A stretch of 64,000 nucleotides of DNA, taken from assembly GCA_051278195.1 (NCBI GenBank), contig JBNMQM010000022.1:864-64863 (forward strand). Direction: 5' to 3'. Origin of the DNA: Candidatus Azotimanducaceae bacterium. GTDB taxonomy: Bacteria; Pseudomonadota; Gammaproteobacteria; Pseudomonadales; Azotimanducaceae. Positions 46,503 through 55,493 of this stretch are shown one piece after another. A program made the position numbers and the translations under genes. Positions within the stretch are counted from its first letter, which is position 1. Each line of letters starts with the position of its first letter. The notes under the pieces are model-generated. The model was not told the origin of the DNA and did not search any database. It worked only from the letters and a program-made list of their open reading frames with translations.

Positions 46503-47363
46503 ATGTCCAACACCTTGTTAGCCCAACACGTAAACAAACTCACCGTATTATGCCTATTCGTGATCGCTGGTCTGTTGATGTTAACCACCTATGTTTGGGC
46601 GCAGGCTAAAGCGGCTGATGAACGATTGGTTGAGCGGCAATTTAGTCTTTCACTGGTGAATCTCAGTCAAAAAATCGACGCCCGTATCGAGAGCATGAAG
46701 CTAATTGCCAAAACGATTGCCAGCGATAAGCATATTCACGATTGGGTAGAGAATGGATTTGCGGCTGATCAAGAATCACTTTTGGTCGACAAGCTCGGGT
46801 ATTTGGTCAATGAATACGGGCTGACGAGCGCTTCGTTTGCGGACAAAAACACGCACAAATACTGGAATCACGAAGGCTTCTTAAGAGTCTTACAGCCTGA
46901 AACCGACACCTGGTATTTTGCTTATTTGGCCAGTGGCGAAGCAGACCTGATAAGTGTGTATCACGATAAGAACAAAAATCGTGTTGATGTTTATGTTAAC
47001 CATCAACAAACCGCTGGCAATGGACTGTCGGGCATCGCGACTTCGTTTGATGGCGTGCTCGATATGCTCAACACATCGATATTCGCCAAACATGGCGACA
47101 TTTATTTAGTGGATAGTTTGGGCGAAGTTCAAATTCAGGCGGAATCTGATAACTCAGGTAGCACAACAGGTAGCACAACAGGCAGCACAACAGAAAGTAT
47201 AAACCTGCAAGACCTGTTTTCTGAGCAAGTTGTTGGTGGCTTATTGCAGCCAAGTTCAACGGATTCTGTTGAGTTCAAACTAGTTGGAAACAGTTTGGTT
47301 GGTGCCAGGTACATTCCCAATATGAATTGGTATGTTGTGGTTAATCTTGCCAATGAAGGTTAG
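46503..47363 (+). CDS. membrane-anchored Cache-like sensor domain protein without output domain
   Basis: One N-terminal TM helix followed by a periplasmic-sensor-like sequence ending ...GARYIPNMNWYVVVNLANEG*. This pattern is typical of the Cache input domains of chemoreceptors and cyclases. No second TM, HAMP or output domain follows. Confidence 0.6.
   Translation: MSNTLLAQHVNKLTVLCLFVIAGLLMLTTYVWAQAKAADERLVERQFSLSLVNLSQKIDARIESMKLIAKTIASDKHIHDWVENGFAADQESLLVDKLGYLVNEYGLTSASFADKNTHKYWNHEGFLRVLQPETDTWYFAYLASGEADLISVYHDKNKNRVDVYVNHQQTAGNGLSGIATSFDGVLDMLNTSIFAKHGDIYLVDSLGEVQIQAESDNSGSTTGSTTGSTTESINLQDLFSEQVVGGLLQPSSTDSVEFKLVGNSLVGARYIPNMNWYVVVNLANEG
47167..47202 (+). repeat. in-frame 12-bp tandem repeat (GGYAGCACAACA x3) encoding GSTT x3
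   Basis: Read directly from the sequence, inside the Cache-like ORF. Confidence 0.9.
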
Positions 47364-47482
47364 GGGATAGAGTAGCGGGGTAGGGTAGCTTTACTCCACA
47401 ATTAGAGATTTATTGATCTCCATCAACTCCATTAATATCGGCGGGTGCTACGATATTGACACTTGAAATGGAGCTAAGGATC

Positions 47483-48073
47483 ATGAAAAACATATTTGTG
47501 ACTTTGGTCTTGGCTGTAGGATTAATGGCATGTCAGGGTTACAACCCGATGGACGAGTACGATCTTAAACAGCCGACAACTGACCATAGCTTGTCCACAA
47601 TCAGCAGCGCATACCCGATAGCCGATGTGAAGCGCGGCAAATATCTGGCAGAACTACTGGCCTGTGGTACCTGCCATACAGACGGTGCTCTCATCGGCGA
47701 GCCGAATCCGGCTTATCAACTTGCTGGTTCGCGGGTTGGCATAGCGTACTCCAACCCGTTTATAGAAAAGCACCCGGGTATTCTTTATCCATCCAACATC
47801 ACGCCTGATGTCGAAACTGGCATCGGTGCCTGGCGCGATGACGATATCATCCGTTTTTTGCGAACGGGTATGGATGTTCAAGGCAAGCGGCATATTCCTG
47901 TGATGCCATGGCCAGCTTATAAGCGGCTGACGGATCAAGACGCCCTTGCAATGGTCGCGTTCCTTAGGAGCTTAAAGCCCGTTACTCACCAGACGCCCGA
48001 TGCAGTTTCGCCTGGCAATAAAGCCGCTGAGCCATTCGTGCATTTTGGTGTTTACCAGAGCAAAAAACTGTGA
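47483..48073 (+). CDS. monoheme c-type cytochrome, lipoprotein
   Basis: Lipobox LMACQG and a single CGTCH heme-binding motif. An RBS-like GGAGCTAAGGA lies before the ATG at 47483. Confidence 0.8.
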   Translation: MKNIFVTLVLAVGLMACQGYNPMDEYDLKQPTTDHSLSTISSAYPIADVKRGKYLAELLACGTCHTDGALIGEPNPAYQLAGSRVGIAYSNPFIEKHPGILYPSNITPDVETGIGAWRDDDIIRFLRTGMDVQGKRHIPVMPWPAYKRLTDQDALAMVAFLRSLKPVTHQTPDAVSPGNKAAEPFVHFGVYQSKKL

Positions 48074-49596: not shown

Positions 49597-49656
49597 GTGA
49601 TTCTCTGTGCTGGCGAAAGGCGGCCATGATACCGCTCACGCAGCGTCTAAGGAATT

Positions 49657-49687
49657 GCTAAGTCACTATGGGATCAGTGTCCCCTAT
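49657..49687 (+). repeat. intergenic repeat, type 2 (GCTAAGTCACTATGGGATCAGTGTCCCCTAT)
   Basis: 28 of 31 positions are identical to 55258-55288. The core ATCAGTGTCCCCTA recurs at 50691-50704. Confidence 0.8.
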
Positions 49688-50484
49688 GTTTGTTTCGCCT
49701 TGAACAGACGATTACGAAACTTACGCATGCCGTTCAGCCAGCGTTCGTAATCGTTCGCTTTGTTGCGAAAGTACTTGGCAACCTCTGGGTGGGGCAGTAC
49801 TAAAAACTCTTCATTCTTGATTGCCTTTATGCAGCAGTCAGCCACAAAGTCAGGTTCTAAAATGCCATCGTTGGCCGCTTGATTCGATTCTGGTTTTTTT
49901 GTGCTCTTGCTACTTTTTCCTAAAATCTTTGTTCTTACCGCTTGTGGGCATAACACTGACACACCAATGCCGCGCTCTTGATAGTTGATCGCCAACCATT
50001 CCGCGAAGGCGACTGACGCGTGCTTGGATACAGCATAAGCACCGGAATCAATTTGGGTGAGCAAACCAGCTGCCGAGGAAGTATTGAGAATGTATCCATA
50101 GCCTCGTTCAATCATTTTTGGTATCACGGCTTGTGCCGCATACAAATGCGACCACATGTGAACATCCATCATCTGTTGCCAGTCAGCAGCCTCAAGTGAC
50201 AAGCCGCCACCTTTTGCATACCCTGCGTTTGACACAAAGATATCTATCCCGCCCTGAGCTTCCTCATCGATCACCAATTGATTAATAGCCGCTTGAGCAG
50301 CGACATTCAGTCTTAACGCGGTGGCGACATCACCAATGTTAGCTGCGGTTTTTTGTGCGCCCTCTAAGTCTAGATCTACGCAAACCACACGTCGCGCGCC
50401 TTCCTCTGCAAACTTTTGAGCCAAAGACCGACCGATGCCCGAGCCTGCGCCAGTCACCACGACTGATTTGCCTTGAATGTTCAT
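49684..50484 (-). CDS. SDR family oxidoreductase
   Basis: VVVTGAGSGIGRS, SNAG and YAVSKHASV motifs. Confidence 0.9.
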   Translation of the reverse strand: MNIQGKSVVVTGAGSGIGRSLAQKFAEEGARRVVCVDLDLEGAQKTAANIGDVATALRLNVAAQAAINQLVIDEEAQGGIDIFVSNAGYAKGGGLSLEAADWQQMMDVHMWSHLYAAQAVIPKMIERGYGYILNTSSAAGLLTQIDSGAYAVSKHASVAFAEWLAINYQERGIGVSVLCPQAVRTKILGKSSKSTKKPESNQAANDGILEPDFVADCCIKAIKNEEFLVLPHPEVAKYFRNKANDYERWLNGMRKFRNRLFKAKQT

Positions 50485-50642: not shown

Positions 50643-50705
50643 CTCGCATGTTTCGGATGACACTTTCTGATATCAGCACTGGGCGCGGTATCAGTGTCCC
50701 CTAGA
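50643..50705 (+). repeat. intergenic repeat, type 1 copy (25-bp perfect core ATATCAGCACTGGGCGCGGTATCAG at 50670-50694) fused to a type 2 core
   Basis: Direct comparison with 53654-53704. The ORF-track translations of both copies share ISTGRGIS. Confidence 0.85.
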
Positions 50706-50706
50706 T

Positions 50707-53403
50707 TCAGGCCTTTGATCGGCCACGCAACTCTCGCAATCGCCAGTGCACAAGCGGAAGCATTTTGATTACAACAGCCGGGATAAAATAGACTATCGCA
50801 TCCTGTGCCGCGGTAAAGGAAATACTTTTCGGCTCGGGGCTGGTTAGATTCTCTTCACCGAAATGGTCTCCAGCGGAAAATAGCGATGCCGGCGAGCCAT
50901 CATTATGCGCGATACTAAGCTCCCCGTGATCTACGAGATAGAGTCCAGACTCGGCTCTCGGCGTCACCGTATCGCCTTTGGCTACAACAATTTCAATCAT
51001 TCCACGGGCAATACGGTTCTTGATCAAAGTGCTAATGCCGTCATCAAACAGCCAACTTTGTTTCAACGCGGATATCGGTTTTTGTAATGCTGTAATCAAT
51101 GCACCTATGCCACTATTCTCCAAAAATATGCGGCAGATTTCATGCGAGAATTGAAACAACACCACATGTGAAATGCAGCGAAAGGTAGCCGAAGACGCTT
51201 CACCGGTAAACAAACTTTCCTCGCCTACAAATGACCCACTCGATATGTGGGAGGTTTTGCCTTTCTCAATTTTCTCCACACTACCGGTGACCAGCAAAAA
51301 TAGTATCGAAGTGCTTTCTCCTGTTGCCAAGATAGTTTCTCCCGGATTGCAGGCCTGCATTTCGCTATTTAAGAAAGCCCTCAGATGGGCAGGTGTTACT
51401 TCAGGAAAATATCCGATAAGACTTTGCATAGCCTTGTCACGAAAATAATTTTCTTGGCTTTCTATGAGCACATCAACCGCGGCAAAGGCGGCAGTGTCAC
51501 CGATTTCTTTCTCGCTAACCGTTAAGGTTCGAGCAGTATGAGCCAGCACAATCTCGTTTGATGGATCTTCCTTAAAGTCTTCTGCGGCGCCATGGATAAG
51601 CCCTCCACCTATGTCTATTTTCTTCAAATCTAATTTGGTCAAGTATGTCTCCTGAATCTGACGGTTCCACTCAGCAGATATGCCTGGTGCAAGGCTATCC
51701 TCAGTGACCATCGAATCAAGAACTTTGCGGGAGCTTAAGTCAGCCCAATGCCCATAAGTTTTGTAGCCTTTACCGCCAACCGCCCTGAAAACAAAGAGAC
51801 TGTTTTCAACTGGGTGGGGTGAAAATATGGGTTTCACTTCCAGACCATCAATATCGTTCCACTCATCGAACTTGAGATCATGTTCCTCGAAATAATCTGA
51901 GAAACATGACTCTGGCATAGACATCAGCGCAGAGAGTTTTTTACGAATGGAAGCACGTACCAAAGGCGTCGCATAGTGCCGAATTCGATGGTCCGCTTGC
52001 ATCAGTGCCGGTAGCCCCGCAAAATGATCGTCGTGACAATGGGTATGAAAGATGCCTTTAATTTCGCTGATATCAATACCTACTGATAATAGAATATTGA
52101 ATATATTTGGCCCGGCATCGATGAGAAACACATCGCCCTGGTGCAGCACAATACTGGACATAGCAGGTCGTTTAGTGTCCCAACCATCGCCTTCACCGAC
52201 ATGCAATATGGCAAAATACTCACGGGCAATCGGATGAAAGCCTAGTTGGTACGGAGACTCATATAGCTCATCTTTAGCCAGATTCAGATTAACTTCAATG
52301 CAACGGTCGTTGTATTTGAATTCATATCGATTAAAGCCTTTGCGCCGAATTTTGACGCCGTTTCGGATTGACGTCCATGAGTCTCCATTAGCAACAGGGC
52401 AAGTATCCAACAAGGTATCTGATGTCTTGATTTCGCCAAATGCGAAGGCCAACTTGAGCCGCATTAAACGTGACGCTTCTTCTTCGGTAAGACCTGTCTG
52501 CATAATTTCTTCGACGCTAGTCAAGCCGTAATTACCACGATAAATGTATTCCAGCTGAGCGTTGACCTGATCTTCGCGACCAATTAGAACTGGCTTGATG
52601 CCAAGGTTGCCCGGGTGAGCAGGTATTATCATGCCTTGCAGATAGAGCATTTGCAGAATGGGGAATTCTGCAAGATTCGAAAACTCTCCCTGCTGAATCA
52701 GACTATCTGACAAAAGAATCGCATTGGGCCCAGTTTCACCTTTATCGGTTTCAGCAATGTATTGCTTCTGTTTTAGATGTTTAACCACATCAGCGGGACA
52801 ACCACATAAGATGTAAAGATTGGCTTCGGGAATTTGTAACCAGTAAACACCCGCGCAAACCTTAAATAATTGCAGGTTATTGATAGCCTCACCTAGGATC
52901 TGGTTGGTCTTGTATAACTGCTGATTCTTTTGTTCGAGTGCCTGAATTATGCTGACGCTTTCTTTCTGCTCTTGAAAAAGACCAAATTCGCGGCGTACTC
53001 GGTGTTCTATGCCTTCAGCATCCGCTGACTCTATAAAGTAGGCGTCAATGGAAGACGCTTTGGTCAACGCCCTGAAGGCATCAGCGTCGTTGGATGACGA
53101 GATCAACATCCTCATCGCCCCTGGTACAGCAGTCTTTAGATCATCAAGCAACTGCAAACCCTGACCTGTCCCACCAGACAAGTGAAACTGAGCTAGGATC
53201 AGTTGTACATCACCTGGGATCGGCAAGGCACGGACTATCGACAGTGCCTCTGTAGTCCCGCTGGCGCTGAGTAATTCGTAATCGCCACCTAGCGCATGTT
53301 GGATCAAACTCAATCGCTTGTGATCGTCATCAACCAGAAGCATGCAAGGCTTCTTAGACAATATTGGCGTTTCGACATCCGAATTTTGATTTTCCAAGGT
53401 CAT
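50707..53403 (-). CDS. multidomain signalling protein: degenerate receiver + unknown middle region + metallo-beta-lactamase fold + two cNMP-binding-like domains
   Basis: REC-like N-terminus (MLLVDDD...). H-x-H-x-D-H motif HTHCHDDH. Two C-terminal beta-barrel cNMP-type segments (FVGEESLFTGEASSATF; GDHFGEENL...KSISFTA). Confidence 0.8.
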   Translation of the reverse strand: MTLENQNSDVETPILSKKPCMLLVDDDHKRLSLIQHALGGDYELLSASGTTEALSIVRALPIPGDVQLILAQFHLSGGTGQGLQLLDDLKTAVPGAMRMLISSSNDADAFRALTKASSIDAYFIESADAEGIEHRVRREFGLFQEQKESVSIIQALEQKNQQLYKTNQILGEAINNLQLFKVCAGVYWLQIPEANLYILCGCPADVVKHLKQKQYIAETDKGETGPNAILLSDSLIQQGEFSNLAEFPILQMLYLQGMIIPAHPGNLGIKPVLIGREDQVNAQLEYIYRGNYGLTSVEEIMQTGLTEEEASRLMRLKLAFAFGEIKTSDTLLDTCPVANGDSWTSIRNGVKIRRKGFNRYEFKYNDRCIEVNLNLAKDELYESPYQLGFHPIAREYFAILHVGEGDGWDTKRPAMSSIVLHQGDVFLIDAGPNIFNILLSVGIDISEIKGIFHTHCHDDHFAGLPALMQADHRIRHYATPLVRASIRKKLSALMSMPESCFSDYFEEHDLKFDEWNDIDGLEVKPIFSPHPVENSLFVFRAVGGKGYKTYGHWADLSSRKVLDSMVTEDSLAPGISAEWNRQIQETYLTKLDLKKIDIGGGLIHGAAEDFKEDPSNEIVLAHTARTLTVSEKEIGDTAAFAAVDVLIESQENYFRDKAMQSLIGYFPEVTPAHLRAFLNSEMQACNPGETILATGESTSILFLLVTGSVEKIEKGKTSHISSGSFVGEESLFTGEASSATFRCISHVVLFQFSHEICRIFLENSGIGALITALQKPISALKQSWLFDDGISTLIKNRIARGMIEIVVAKGDTVTPRAESGLYLVDHGELSIAHNDGSPASLFSAGDHFGEENLTSPEPKSISFTAAQDAIVYFIPAVVIKMLPLVHWRLRELRGRSKA

Positions 53404-53653: not shown

Positions 53654-53704
53654 CTCTCATATTCGAGGTGACACTTCCAATATCAGCACTGGGCGCGGTA
53701 TCAG
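53654..53704 (+). repeat. intergenic repeat, type 1 copy (perfect core 53680-53704)
   Basis: Same orientation as 50643-50694. A degenerate type 2 core (AAGTCATCAGTGTCTCTC) follows at 53763-53780. Confidence 0.85.
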
Positions 53705-53878
53705 CCGCGCAATAGTAGGAAGGATTACCCCAAATTAGCTTAGCAGGAATTGCTCATTCAATAAGTCATCAGTGTCTCTCGTGTTCTCGTTGTATCTCCA
53801 GGAATATTGGGGATATGATCACTGGGCAAAGACTTGCGAATAACAACAAGAATGTAAATAGGCGAGAGAGGGGCAACC

Positions 53879-55244: not shown

Positions 55245-55257
55245 CAGACCTCAGACC

Positions 55258-55288
55258 GCTAAGTCACTATGGGATAAGTGTCTCCTAA
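55258..55288 (+). repeat. intergenic repeat, type 2 copy
   Basis: GCTAAGTCACTATGGGATAAGTGTCTCCTAA compared with 49657-49687. Confidence 0.8.
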
Positions 55289-55493
55289 CTGTCTTACAGA
55301 CCGCCGGAGTAATCACTTAGGAAATTTAAAGGTCGGGCAGAGATGATACGGCTGTTTATCCAGGTATGACTTTATTCACCCACTAAATCGACCATTATGG
55401 ATTCTGTAGACAAGCAACAGACCGCGACATGGCAGCCAAGAATTCAAGCTGTATACGTTGAAAGCTCACCCTTGCAGATGCTTCTCGATCGAC

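Follow-up and report, generated by a model that had tools for sequence, protein, structure and literature searches.

A 64,000-nucleotide stretch of DNA from a Candidatus Azotimanducaceae bacterium (the window; contig JBNMQM010000022.1 of assembly GCA_051278195.1) encodes on its minus strand, at positions 50707-53403, an 898-amino-acid protein that is most likely a sensor-coupled nucleotide phosphodiesterase which cyclic nucleoside monophosphates (cNMPs) do not gate in the canonical manner. Its parts are, from the N-terminus, a pseudo-receiver, a long helix, a core of two domains with putative and intact metallo-β-lactamase (MBL) fold, respectively, and two cyclic nucleotide-binding (CNB)-like domains. 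We are highly confident of this anatomy and of the family assignment. The explanation as a whole, in which a catalytically dead and a live MBL domain form the core and the CNB tandem and a non-phosphorylated pseudo-receiver act upon it, has in our estimate a probability of about 0.55.

The gene is real and intact. The interval holds a single open reading frame (ORF) of 898 codons plus stop (our P0001) on the minus strand, while the plus strand was ruled out by its many stops; the motifs quoted in the preliminary description of this DNA all lie at the residues given there. The start codon is credible, with N-terminal residues that are kept among relatives and an AAAGGA 7 nt before the ATG. Comparison of the window gene with two relatives yields ratios of non-synonymous to synonymous substitution rates (dN/dS) of 0.07-0.37 across every domain, with 0.09-0.14 in the two MBL-fold core domains, 0.19-0.35 in the pseudo-receiver and 0.28-0.35 in the second CNB-like domain (CNB-B). 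A Pfam search of the protein, reported down to E ≤ 1, returns two cNMP_binding stretches (E = 2.2e-18), Lactamase_B (E = 9e-10) and Lactamase_B_2, and phmmer against PDB sequences retrieves the CNB domains of PKG, the HupR receiver and ELAC1, RNase Z and Apyc1. The full-length AlphaFold2 (AF2) model is confident, with a mean predicted local distance difference test score (pLDDT) of 90.7 and a predicted template modelling score (pTM) of 0.79. Family-wide statements below refer to an alignment of the best 120 relatives of the protein.

The catalytic MBL domain comprises residues 397-650 (51454-52215, minus strand), as supported by Pfam, invariant ligands and profile matches. Its HTHCHDDH stretch (residues 453-460; 52024-52047, minus strand) contains the canonical HxHxDH motif as H455-C-H457-D-D459-H460. 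The MBL fold proposed earlier from this stretch is confirmed, with a complete set of metal ligands: D429, H455, H457, D459, H460, H530, D555, H604 and H622 are invariant in the family (82-120 relatives), and the same ligands are kept in a paralog subfamily of only 22% identity. Five basic residues, R483, K489, R540, K594 and K595, are also invariant.

To which MBL enzymes the domain is closest was addressed with a profile built from 31 sequences and searched against the PDB. The best solved match is Apyc1 (7u2s, E = 6.3e-7), followed by an arylsulfatase (8gyg, E = 2e-6) and, further down, by ELAC1, phage Apyc1, a PhnP-family diphosphatase and RNase Z, while ELAC2 gives no significant match (E = 0.25-0.28). 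Among NCBIfam models RNase Z (TIGR02651) scores best, with E = 8e-11 and 41.5 bits against a cut-off of 292.95 over residues 407-470 only. The Apyc1 families reach 17.5 of 50 bits (PF23023, Pfam) and 12.5 of 400 bits (NF041851, NCBIfam). The fold had been likened to that of the class II cAMP phosphodiesterases, and this does not hold at the level of sequence. PF02112, the class II family of the yeast PDE1 and Vibrio CpdP type, is not matched in Pfam at E ≤ 1, and the PDB profile matches include no PDE1-type chain; the nearest solved structures are Apyc1, ELAC1/RNase Z and PhnP-like enzymes. Hobbs et al. (2022, PMC9117128) describe Apyc1, YhfI, yeast PDE1 and RNase Z as homodimers with an HxHxDH motif, and cyclic mononucleotides as the substrates of Apyc1 and YhfI. 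The catalytic domain described here thus has Apyc1 and Bacillus subtilis YhfI as its nearest solved kin and shares with them the motif of their binuclear zinc chemistry (PMC9117128), but these are single-domain homodimers of ~250 amino acids without sensor domains.

N-terminal to the catalytic domain lies a stretch of about 280 residues that had been left unassigned. From the AF2 model and Foldseek it resolves into a linker helix, described below, and a conserved domain of ~220 amino acids (residues 177-396; 52216-52875, minus strand), which is probably a truncated, catalytically dead MBL copy without metal ligands. No other part of the family is as strongly conserved as this domain, which has dozens of invariant columns. 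Modelled alone with AF2 it attains a pLDDT of 86.6, and a Foldseek search of the PDB with this model finds almost only MBL folds (Apyc1, ELAC1, PqqB, tRNase Z, YhfI and PNGM-1), with Apyc1 as the best match. The order of its secondary structure elements, namely three strands, helix, strand, helix, strand, helices and five strands, parallels that of residues 397-553 of the live domain in the AF2 model. The domain lacks an HxHxDH motif; at the corresponding places it reads ILCGCP instead of the LIDAGP of the live domain, and LLSDSLIQQG instead of HTHCHDDH. A search with residues 177-396 alone against 1.84 billion representative proteins gives 242 clusters at 50% identity. In full-length hits the homologous domain stands directly N-terminal to an MBL domain, as confirmed with Pfam in ten hits checked; proteins of ~450-480 amino acids without CNB domains also occur among the hits. 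In ELAC2, the long form of tRNase Z, an inactive N-terminal and an active C-terminal MBL domain replace a homodimer. The dead-plus-live tandem resembles ELAC2 by analogy only; ELAC2 has another substrate and other accessory domains, and the dead copy is truncated in the window protein.

The C-terminal third consists of a CNB-A-like domain (residues 651-780; 51064-51453, minus strand) and a CNB-B-like domain (residues 781-898; 50710-51063, minus strand), both supported by Pfam and Foldseek. Residues ~650-898 match the CNB-A/B tandems of the regulatory subunits of PKA and of PKG with E ~1e-15 in Foldseek, and hhalign relates one domain to the other with a probability of 96.5%. The phosphate-binding cassette (PBC) starts with G727-E728 in CNB-A, and the equivalent G849-E850 of CNB-B is invariant in the family. 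HMMER aligns S737 (in GEASSATF, residues 734-741) and K859 (in PKSISFTA, residues 858-865) with the PBC arginine of PKG, in agreement with the earlier observation that both barrels lack this residue. In CNB-A the cassette reads P/A736-S737-x-G/A739-T740 where the canonical sequence is P-R-x-A-T; column 737 is occupied by S, L, A, C, P or T but never by R, and column 859 is variable. Thus, as judged from the alignment, the loss of the PBC arginine is a property of the whole subfamily and not of the window gene alone. T740, R742 and S745 of CNB-A are nearly invariant family-wide. We considered R742 as a shifted phosphate-binding arginine and rejected it, because T740 aligns with the canonical threonine of R-x-A-T and P736 with the proline preceding the arginine; R742 lies in the middle of β7, at a position which we take to correspond to R87 of CRP and K214 of PKA.

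Because both CNB sites are devoid of the phosphate-binding arginine, canonical gating by cAMP or cGMP is unlikely. This bears on the earlier proposal of a ligand-gated hydrolase, possibly a cyclic-nucleotide phosphodiesterase: a regulated hydrolase and possible phosphodiesterase is still the best reading, whereas ligand gating through the barrels is doubtful with the arginine missing family-wide. It is conceivable that the arginine-less CNB folds, which keep the T740/R742/S745 patch in CNB-A and Gly-Glu in CNB-B, sense a nucleoside or a reaction product, for which the cAMP-independent PKA regulatory subunits of trypanosomes among the fold matches would be a parallel, or another metabolite, that the MBL core degrades a messenger other than cAMP or cGMP, and that the pseudo-receiver serves as a phosphorylation-independent input. 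If all this were true, the proteins would represent a new class of sensor-gated enzymes that degrade nucleotide signals across many bacterial phyla; taken jointly, we consider these proposals rather improbable.

The N-terminal domain (residues 18-128; 53020-53352, minus strand) retains a CheY-like receiver fold. The Response_reg match in Pfam (PF00072) is weak, with 16.9 bits against a cut-off of 30.2, but phmmer aligns the N-terminus with the HupR receiver (E = 4e-5), the AF2 model shows β-α repeats over residues 20-128, and Foldseek matches the domain to receivers with template modelling (TM) scores on the target of 0.68-0.77. The motif positions are D25-D27, A71/Q72 in LILAQFHL, ISSS (101-104) and I124/E125 in AYFIES. 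The alignment places Q72 (codon at 53188-53190, minus strand) on the acceptor aspartate at the end of β3, and E125-S126 on the Lys-Pro pair at the end of β5, in 47 relatives that have a receiver-sized N-terminus with the canonical aspartate (LI(I/L)(S/L)D..MP) and Lys-Pro. The alignment with these relatives restores no aspartate at the acceptor position, which supports the earlier suggestion of a phosphorylation-incompetent receiver; on this alignment the domain is predicted to be unable to accept a phosphate.

These replacements characterize a clade of 16 members from metagenome-assembled genomes of Pseudomonadales and Candidatus Azotimanducaceae, which are 57-88% identical and include the window protein. 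In this clade the aspartate column holds Q, except for one R, one G and one gap, and the lysine column holds E, D, T, A, N or Q, while the acidic pair D25-D27 and the serine at S102/S103 are retained. In a FastTree phylogeny of the core region only (residues 177-650, midpoint root) the clade forms one branch (support 100), is sister to five members with a canonical receiver (96), and is nested within a mostly receiver-bearing clade of 79 members (99). The loss of the acceptor is therefore a single secondary event on the stem of the 16-member clade. The tree contains two further independent losses: P0073 and P0109 carry a glutamate at the acceptor position, a possible phosphomimic, and P0085 an asparagine. 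The dN/dS of 0.19-0.35 indicates that the pseudo-receiver is maintained and not decaying.

The receiver is followed by a long helix (residues 129-176; 52876-53019, minus strand), modelled as helical from 129 to 174 by DSSP analysis of the AF2 model. Family members that consist of the core only lack it and start at about residue 175, and as members without the N-terminal module thus begin right after the helix, we regard it as part of the linker between sensor and core. It probably serves as a signalling or coiled-coil connection from the receiver to the core and may take part in dimerization or signalling. Pseudo-receivers, i.e. receiver domains without the acceptor aspartate, are found in FrzS, in CikA (CikA-PsR) and in the plant pseudo-response regulators. 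As in these examples, the fold is kept, the acceptor aspartate is replaced and the domain is under selection, but in the window protein it is fused to an MBL hydrolase as output.

The preliminary description did not recognise the architecture as a characterised type. Its combination of an MBL domain with two CNB domains is, however, the layout of the Dictyostelium discoideum proteins GbpA (PdeD/PDE5) and GbpB (PdeE/PDE6) (PMC11988041, PMC3188802; the latter lists PdeD as GenBank AAL06059 and PdeE as AAL06060). These are cytosolic cNMP phosphodiesterases, termed class IIb, in which an MBL catalytic domain precedes two cNMP-binding domains and ligand occupancy activates hydrolysis (PMC11988041). 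By this comparison of domain order they are the closest characterised architecture to the window protein, and the bacterial family can be described by analogy as a variant of GbpA/GbpB-like MBL phosphodiesterases. Common to both are an intact MBL domain, with HxHxDH and the remaining metal ligands (HCHADH in GbpA/GbpB, PMC3188802; HCHDDH here), and two C-terminal CNB domains. In contrast to GbpA and GbpB, the window protein has no cNMP-competent cassettes (Gly-Glu ... Arg-Ser/Thr-Ala) and adds an N-terminal pseudo-receiver with its linker helix.

Taken together, these features suggest the following mechanism for a sensor-coupled phosphodiesterase. The dead MBL domain would pack onto the live one and take, within a single chain, the place of the homodimer partner on which the related MBL phosphodiesterases Apyc1, YhfI, PDE1 and RNase Z depend. 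The live binuclear-metal domain would hydrolyse a nucleotide phosphodiester, for which a 3',5'-cyclic mononucleotide, the kind of substrate used by GbpA/GbpB and Apyc1, is the likeliest candidate; for a cNMP as the actual substrate, by analogy to these enzymes, we see roughly even odds. The PKA-R-like CNB tandem may regulate the enzyme allosterically or by autoinhibition while no longer responding to cNMP, with control shifted to swappable terminal sensors, i.e. receiver (REC), hemerythrin, PAS/GAF, CHASE2 or HAMP domains. The pseudo-receiver may be a dimerization module locked in one state or a partner-binding module. Since aspartate and lysine are both lost, yet the domain is under purifying selection and a long helix ties it to the core, it presumably works without phosphorylation. 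We propose that the protein is a cytoplasmic, stand-alone signalling enzyme.

Several observations weigh against this explanation. The Foldseek scores of the middle domain are weak (best E = 3.7e-3, TM 0.35-0.44), and its identification as a pseudo-MBL is drawn from fold and topology, because a comparison of its profile with that of the live domain in hhalign gave no sequence similarity (probability 0.2%). The matches of the catalytic domain to Apyc1 and RNase Z span its N-terminal half only and lie far below the curated cut-offs. The link to GbpA/GbpB is one of architecture, drawn from published descriptions, and literature searches found no characterised or assayed bacterial member of the family. 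Genomic context gave no clue to the substrate in the window or in the loci of relatives (63 surveyed), and the ortholog is patchy, with 2 of 40 related genomes containing it (E ≤ 1e-50).

The most probable alternative is a regulated phosphodiesterase or nuclease with a nucleotide substrate other than cAMP or cGMP, for instance a 2',3'-cNMP, a cyclic di- or oligonucleotide, or the 3' ends of RNA or tRNA that RNase Z acts on. We regard it as possible but clearly less probable. RNase Z is the best NCBIfam match and ELAC1, RNase Z and RNase J are among the PDB matches, but the RNase Z score remains far under its cut-off and is confined to motifs I-II, and it is the cNMP-specific Apyc1 that heads the profile matches. 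The tandem of dead and live MBL domains recalls ELAC2, the invariant basic residues R483, K489, R540, K594 and K595 could hold a larger polyanionic substrate, and the CNB sites are not built for cNMP. Yet the only characterised proteins with the same layout degrade cAMP and cGMP (PMC11988041), and neither nucleic-acid-binding domains nor a defence-system context are present: a PADLOC scan revealed no defence-system membership, and PycTIR and TIR-effector models were matched only weakly and through the CNB domain (E ≥ 1e-4).

It is unlikely that the protein is a sensor-regulated MBL hydrolase acting on something other than a nucleotide, e.g. a lactone, thioester or sulfate ester. The MBL superfamily is catalytically diverse, but the arylsulfatase that ranks second in the profile search matches over just 54 residues around motifs I-II. 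Likewise, the genes for lipid and xenobiotic metabolism next to the window gene (short-chain dehydrogenase/reductase (SDR), P450, enoyl-CoA hydratase) might hint at such a substrate, but this neighbourhood is not kept even in relatives of 81-88% identity, and the fusion to signalling sensors and the linkage to two-component systems across the family point to messenger turnover instead. Least probable is a decaying or regulatory-dead, i.e. constitutive or non-functional, copy in the window's clade: although acceptor aspartate and lysine are lost, the gene is patchy in its lineage and the pseudo-receiver and CNB-B evolve faster than the core, dN/dS is well below 1 in every domain, at least 16 clade clusters carry an intact ORF, none of the catalytic ligands varies and the loss of the CNB arginine is family-wide instead of clade-specific.

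The sensor-coupled phosphodiesterase proposed here belongs to a widespread bacterial family without known experimental study, to which the window copy contributes a clade-specific pseudo-receiver. Proteins with this core, in which a dead and a live MBL domain precede two CNB domains, are encoded by several hundred bacterial species, often in several copies per genome. A scan of one genome per species gave at least 582 confirmed family stretches, so that any rarity of this architecture, for which a survey had been proposed, can be discounted. Among the matches listed are Desulfobacterales, Magnetococcales, SAR324, Nitrospirota, anammox Planctomycetota, Spirochaetota, Cytophagales (Bacteroidota), Campylobacterota, Rhodospirillales, Burkholderiales and marine Gammaproteobacteria, and the best 120 matches of each of two protein searches are all bacterial. 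One member of 47% identity (locus L061, contig JAIWHJ010000010.1) is binned as Promethearchaeota (Asgard) at very low coverage, which may reflect a binning error or horizontal transfer.

Interchangeable modules are attached to the core: an N-terminal REC, C-terminal extensions of at least 100 amino acids with hemerythrin according to precomputed Pfam hits, or PAS/GAF, HAMP, CHASE2 or SBP_bac_3 domains, while some members have none. Members that have no hemerythrin domain by the same hits, e.g. P0004, P0006-P0012 and P0013, nevertheless bear hemerythrin names in JGI and NCBI; the window's clade is among them, and the name has probably spread from the hemerythrin-tailed subgroup. In the survey of 63 loci two-component proteins are the only recurring neighbours, namely histidine kinases upstream of REC-bearing members and REC-SpoIIE phosphatases, and no cyclase or effector gene recurs. 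Histidine kinases adjoin members with a canonical REC at 13 of the 63 loci; none was found adjoining the 898-amino-acid ORF in the window or in the loci of close relatives. In loci from Rhodospirillales/Thalassospiraceae (L026:3602-4822 and L039:4518-5738) a gene for a REC-SpoIIE (PP2C-type) phosphatase lies one to two genes upstream on the same strand and one for a ParA/MinD-like ATPase two genes downstream, which may constitute a lineage-specific signalling cassette.

The genome of the window encodes five class III nucleotidyl cyclases and therefore makes cNMP. It also encodes two distant paralogs of ~720 amino acids, C38 (G000:C38; L081:1113-3290, minus strand) and C96 (G000:C96; L082:2426-4588, plus strand), which align collinearly to the window protein over the middle domain, the catalytic domain and both CNB domains (22% identity, E = 9e-27). 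They represent a marine gammaproteobacterial subfamily of Pseudomonadales/SAR86, annotated as cyclic nucleotide-binding domain-containing proteins. Like the window protein they keep all MBL ligands, but they differ from it in a canonical CNB-A (GEMAVVTG..RNAS), an LTHLHDDH motif, the lack of a terminal sensor and a degenerate CNB-B. Judged by these sequences, the paralogs look truly cNMP-gated, while the subfamily of the window protein looks re-wired to other inputs. Each paralog gene stands divergently beside an acyl-CoA dehydrogenase gene and may be part of a duplicated two-gene block. In the locus of a relative of 81% identity a gene ~5 kb upstream (L083:1-1041) encodes an MscS-type channel with a fused cNMP-binding domain, a further hint of active cNMP signalling in this lineage.

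Within the window the 898-amino-acid ORF is neighboured by genes for an SDR, a tryptophanyl-tRNA synthetase (TrpRS) and a P450, with an enoyl-CoA hydratase gene also nearby. It is separated from the downstream SDR gene by a gap of 222 nt, and the upstream P450 gene is divergent, so that the ORF is likely monocistronic. Neighbourhoods differ among relatives of 57-88% identity. Short intergenic direct repeats of 17-41 nt with 73-94% identity (49650-49690, 50665-50703, 53675-53704, 53745-53785 and 55251-55291) flank the SDR gene, the gene described here and the P450 gene and resemble a local family of REP-like elements. At 46503-47363 (plus strand) the window encodes a 286-amino-acid protein with a weak dCache_1 match below cut-off, which may be periplasmic and sensor-like without an attached output domain; a cytochrome c gene follows at 47456-48073 (plus strand).

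Turnover of cAMP and cGMP in bacteria is generally credited to enzymes of the CpdA type (class III), and in a few instances to those of class II. The present analysis points to a bacterial family that has the layout of GbpA/GbpB and is wired to oxygen/redox, two-component and other sensors. If the proposed tandem of dead and live MBL domains is real, it would be a second case beside ELAC2 in which a homodimeric MBL enzyme has become a single-chain pseudo-dimer. The genome of the window offers a natural comparison between one copy that combines a pseudo-receiver with arginine-less CNB domains and two distant ones whose cNMP site is canonical. The substrate of the family would reveal which messenger these sensors control.

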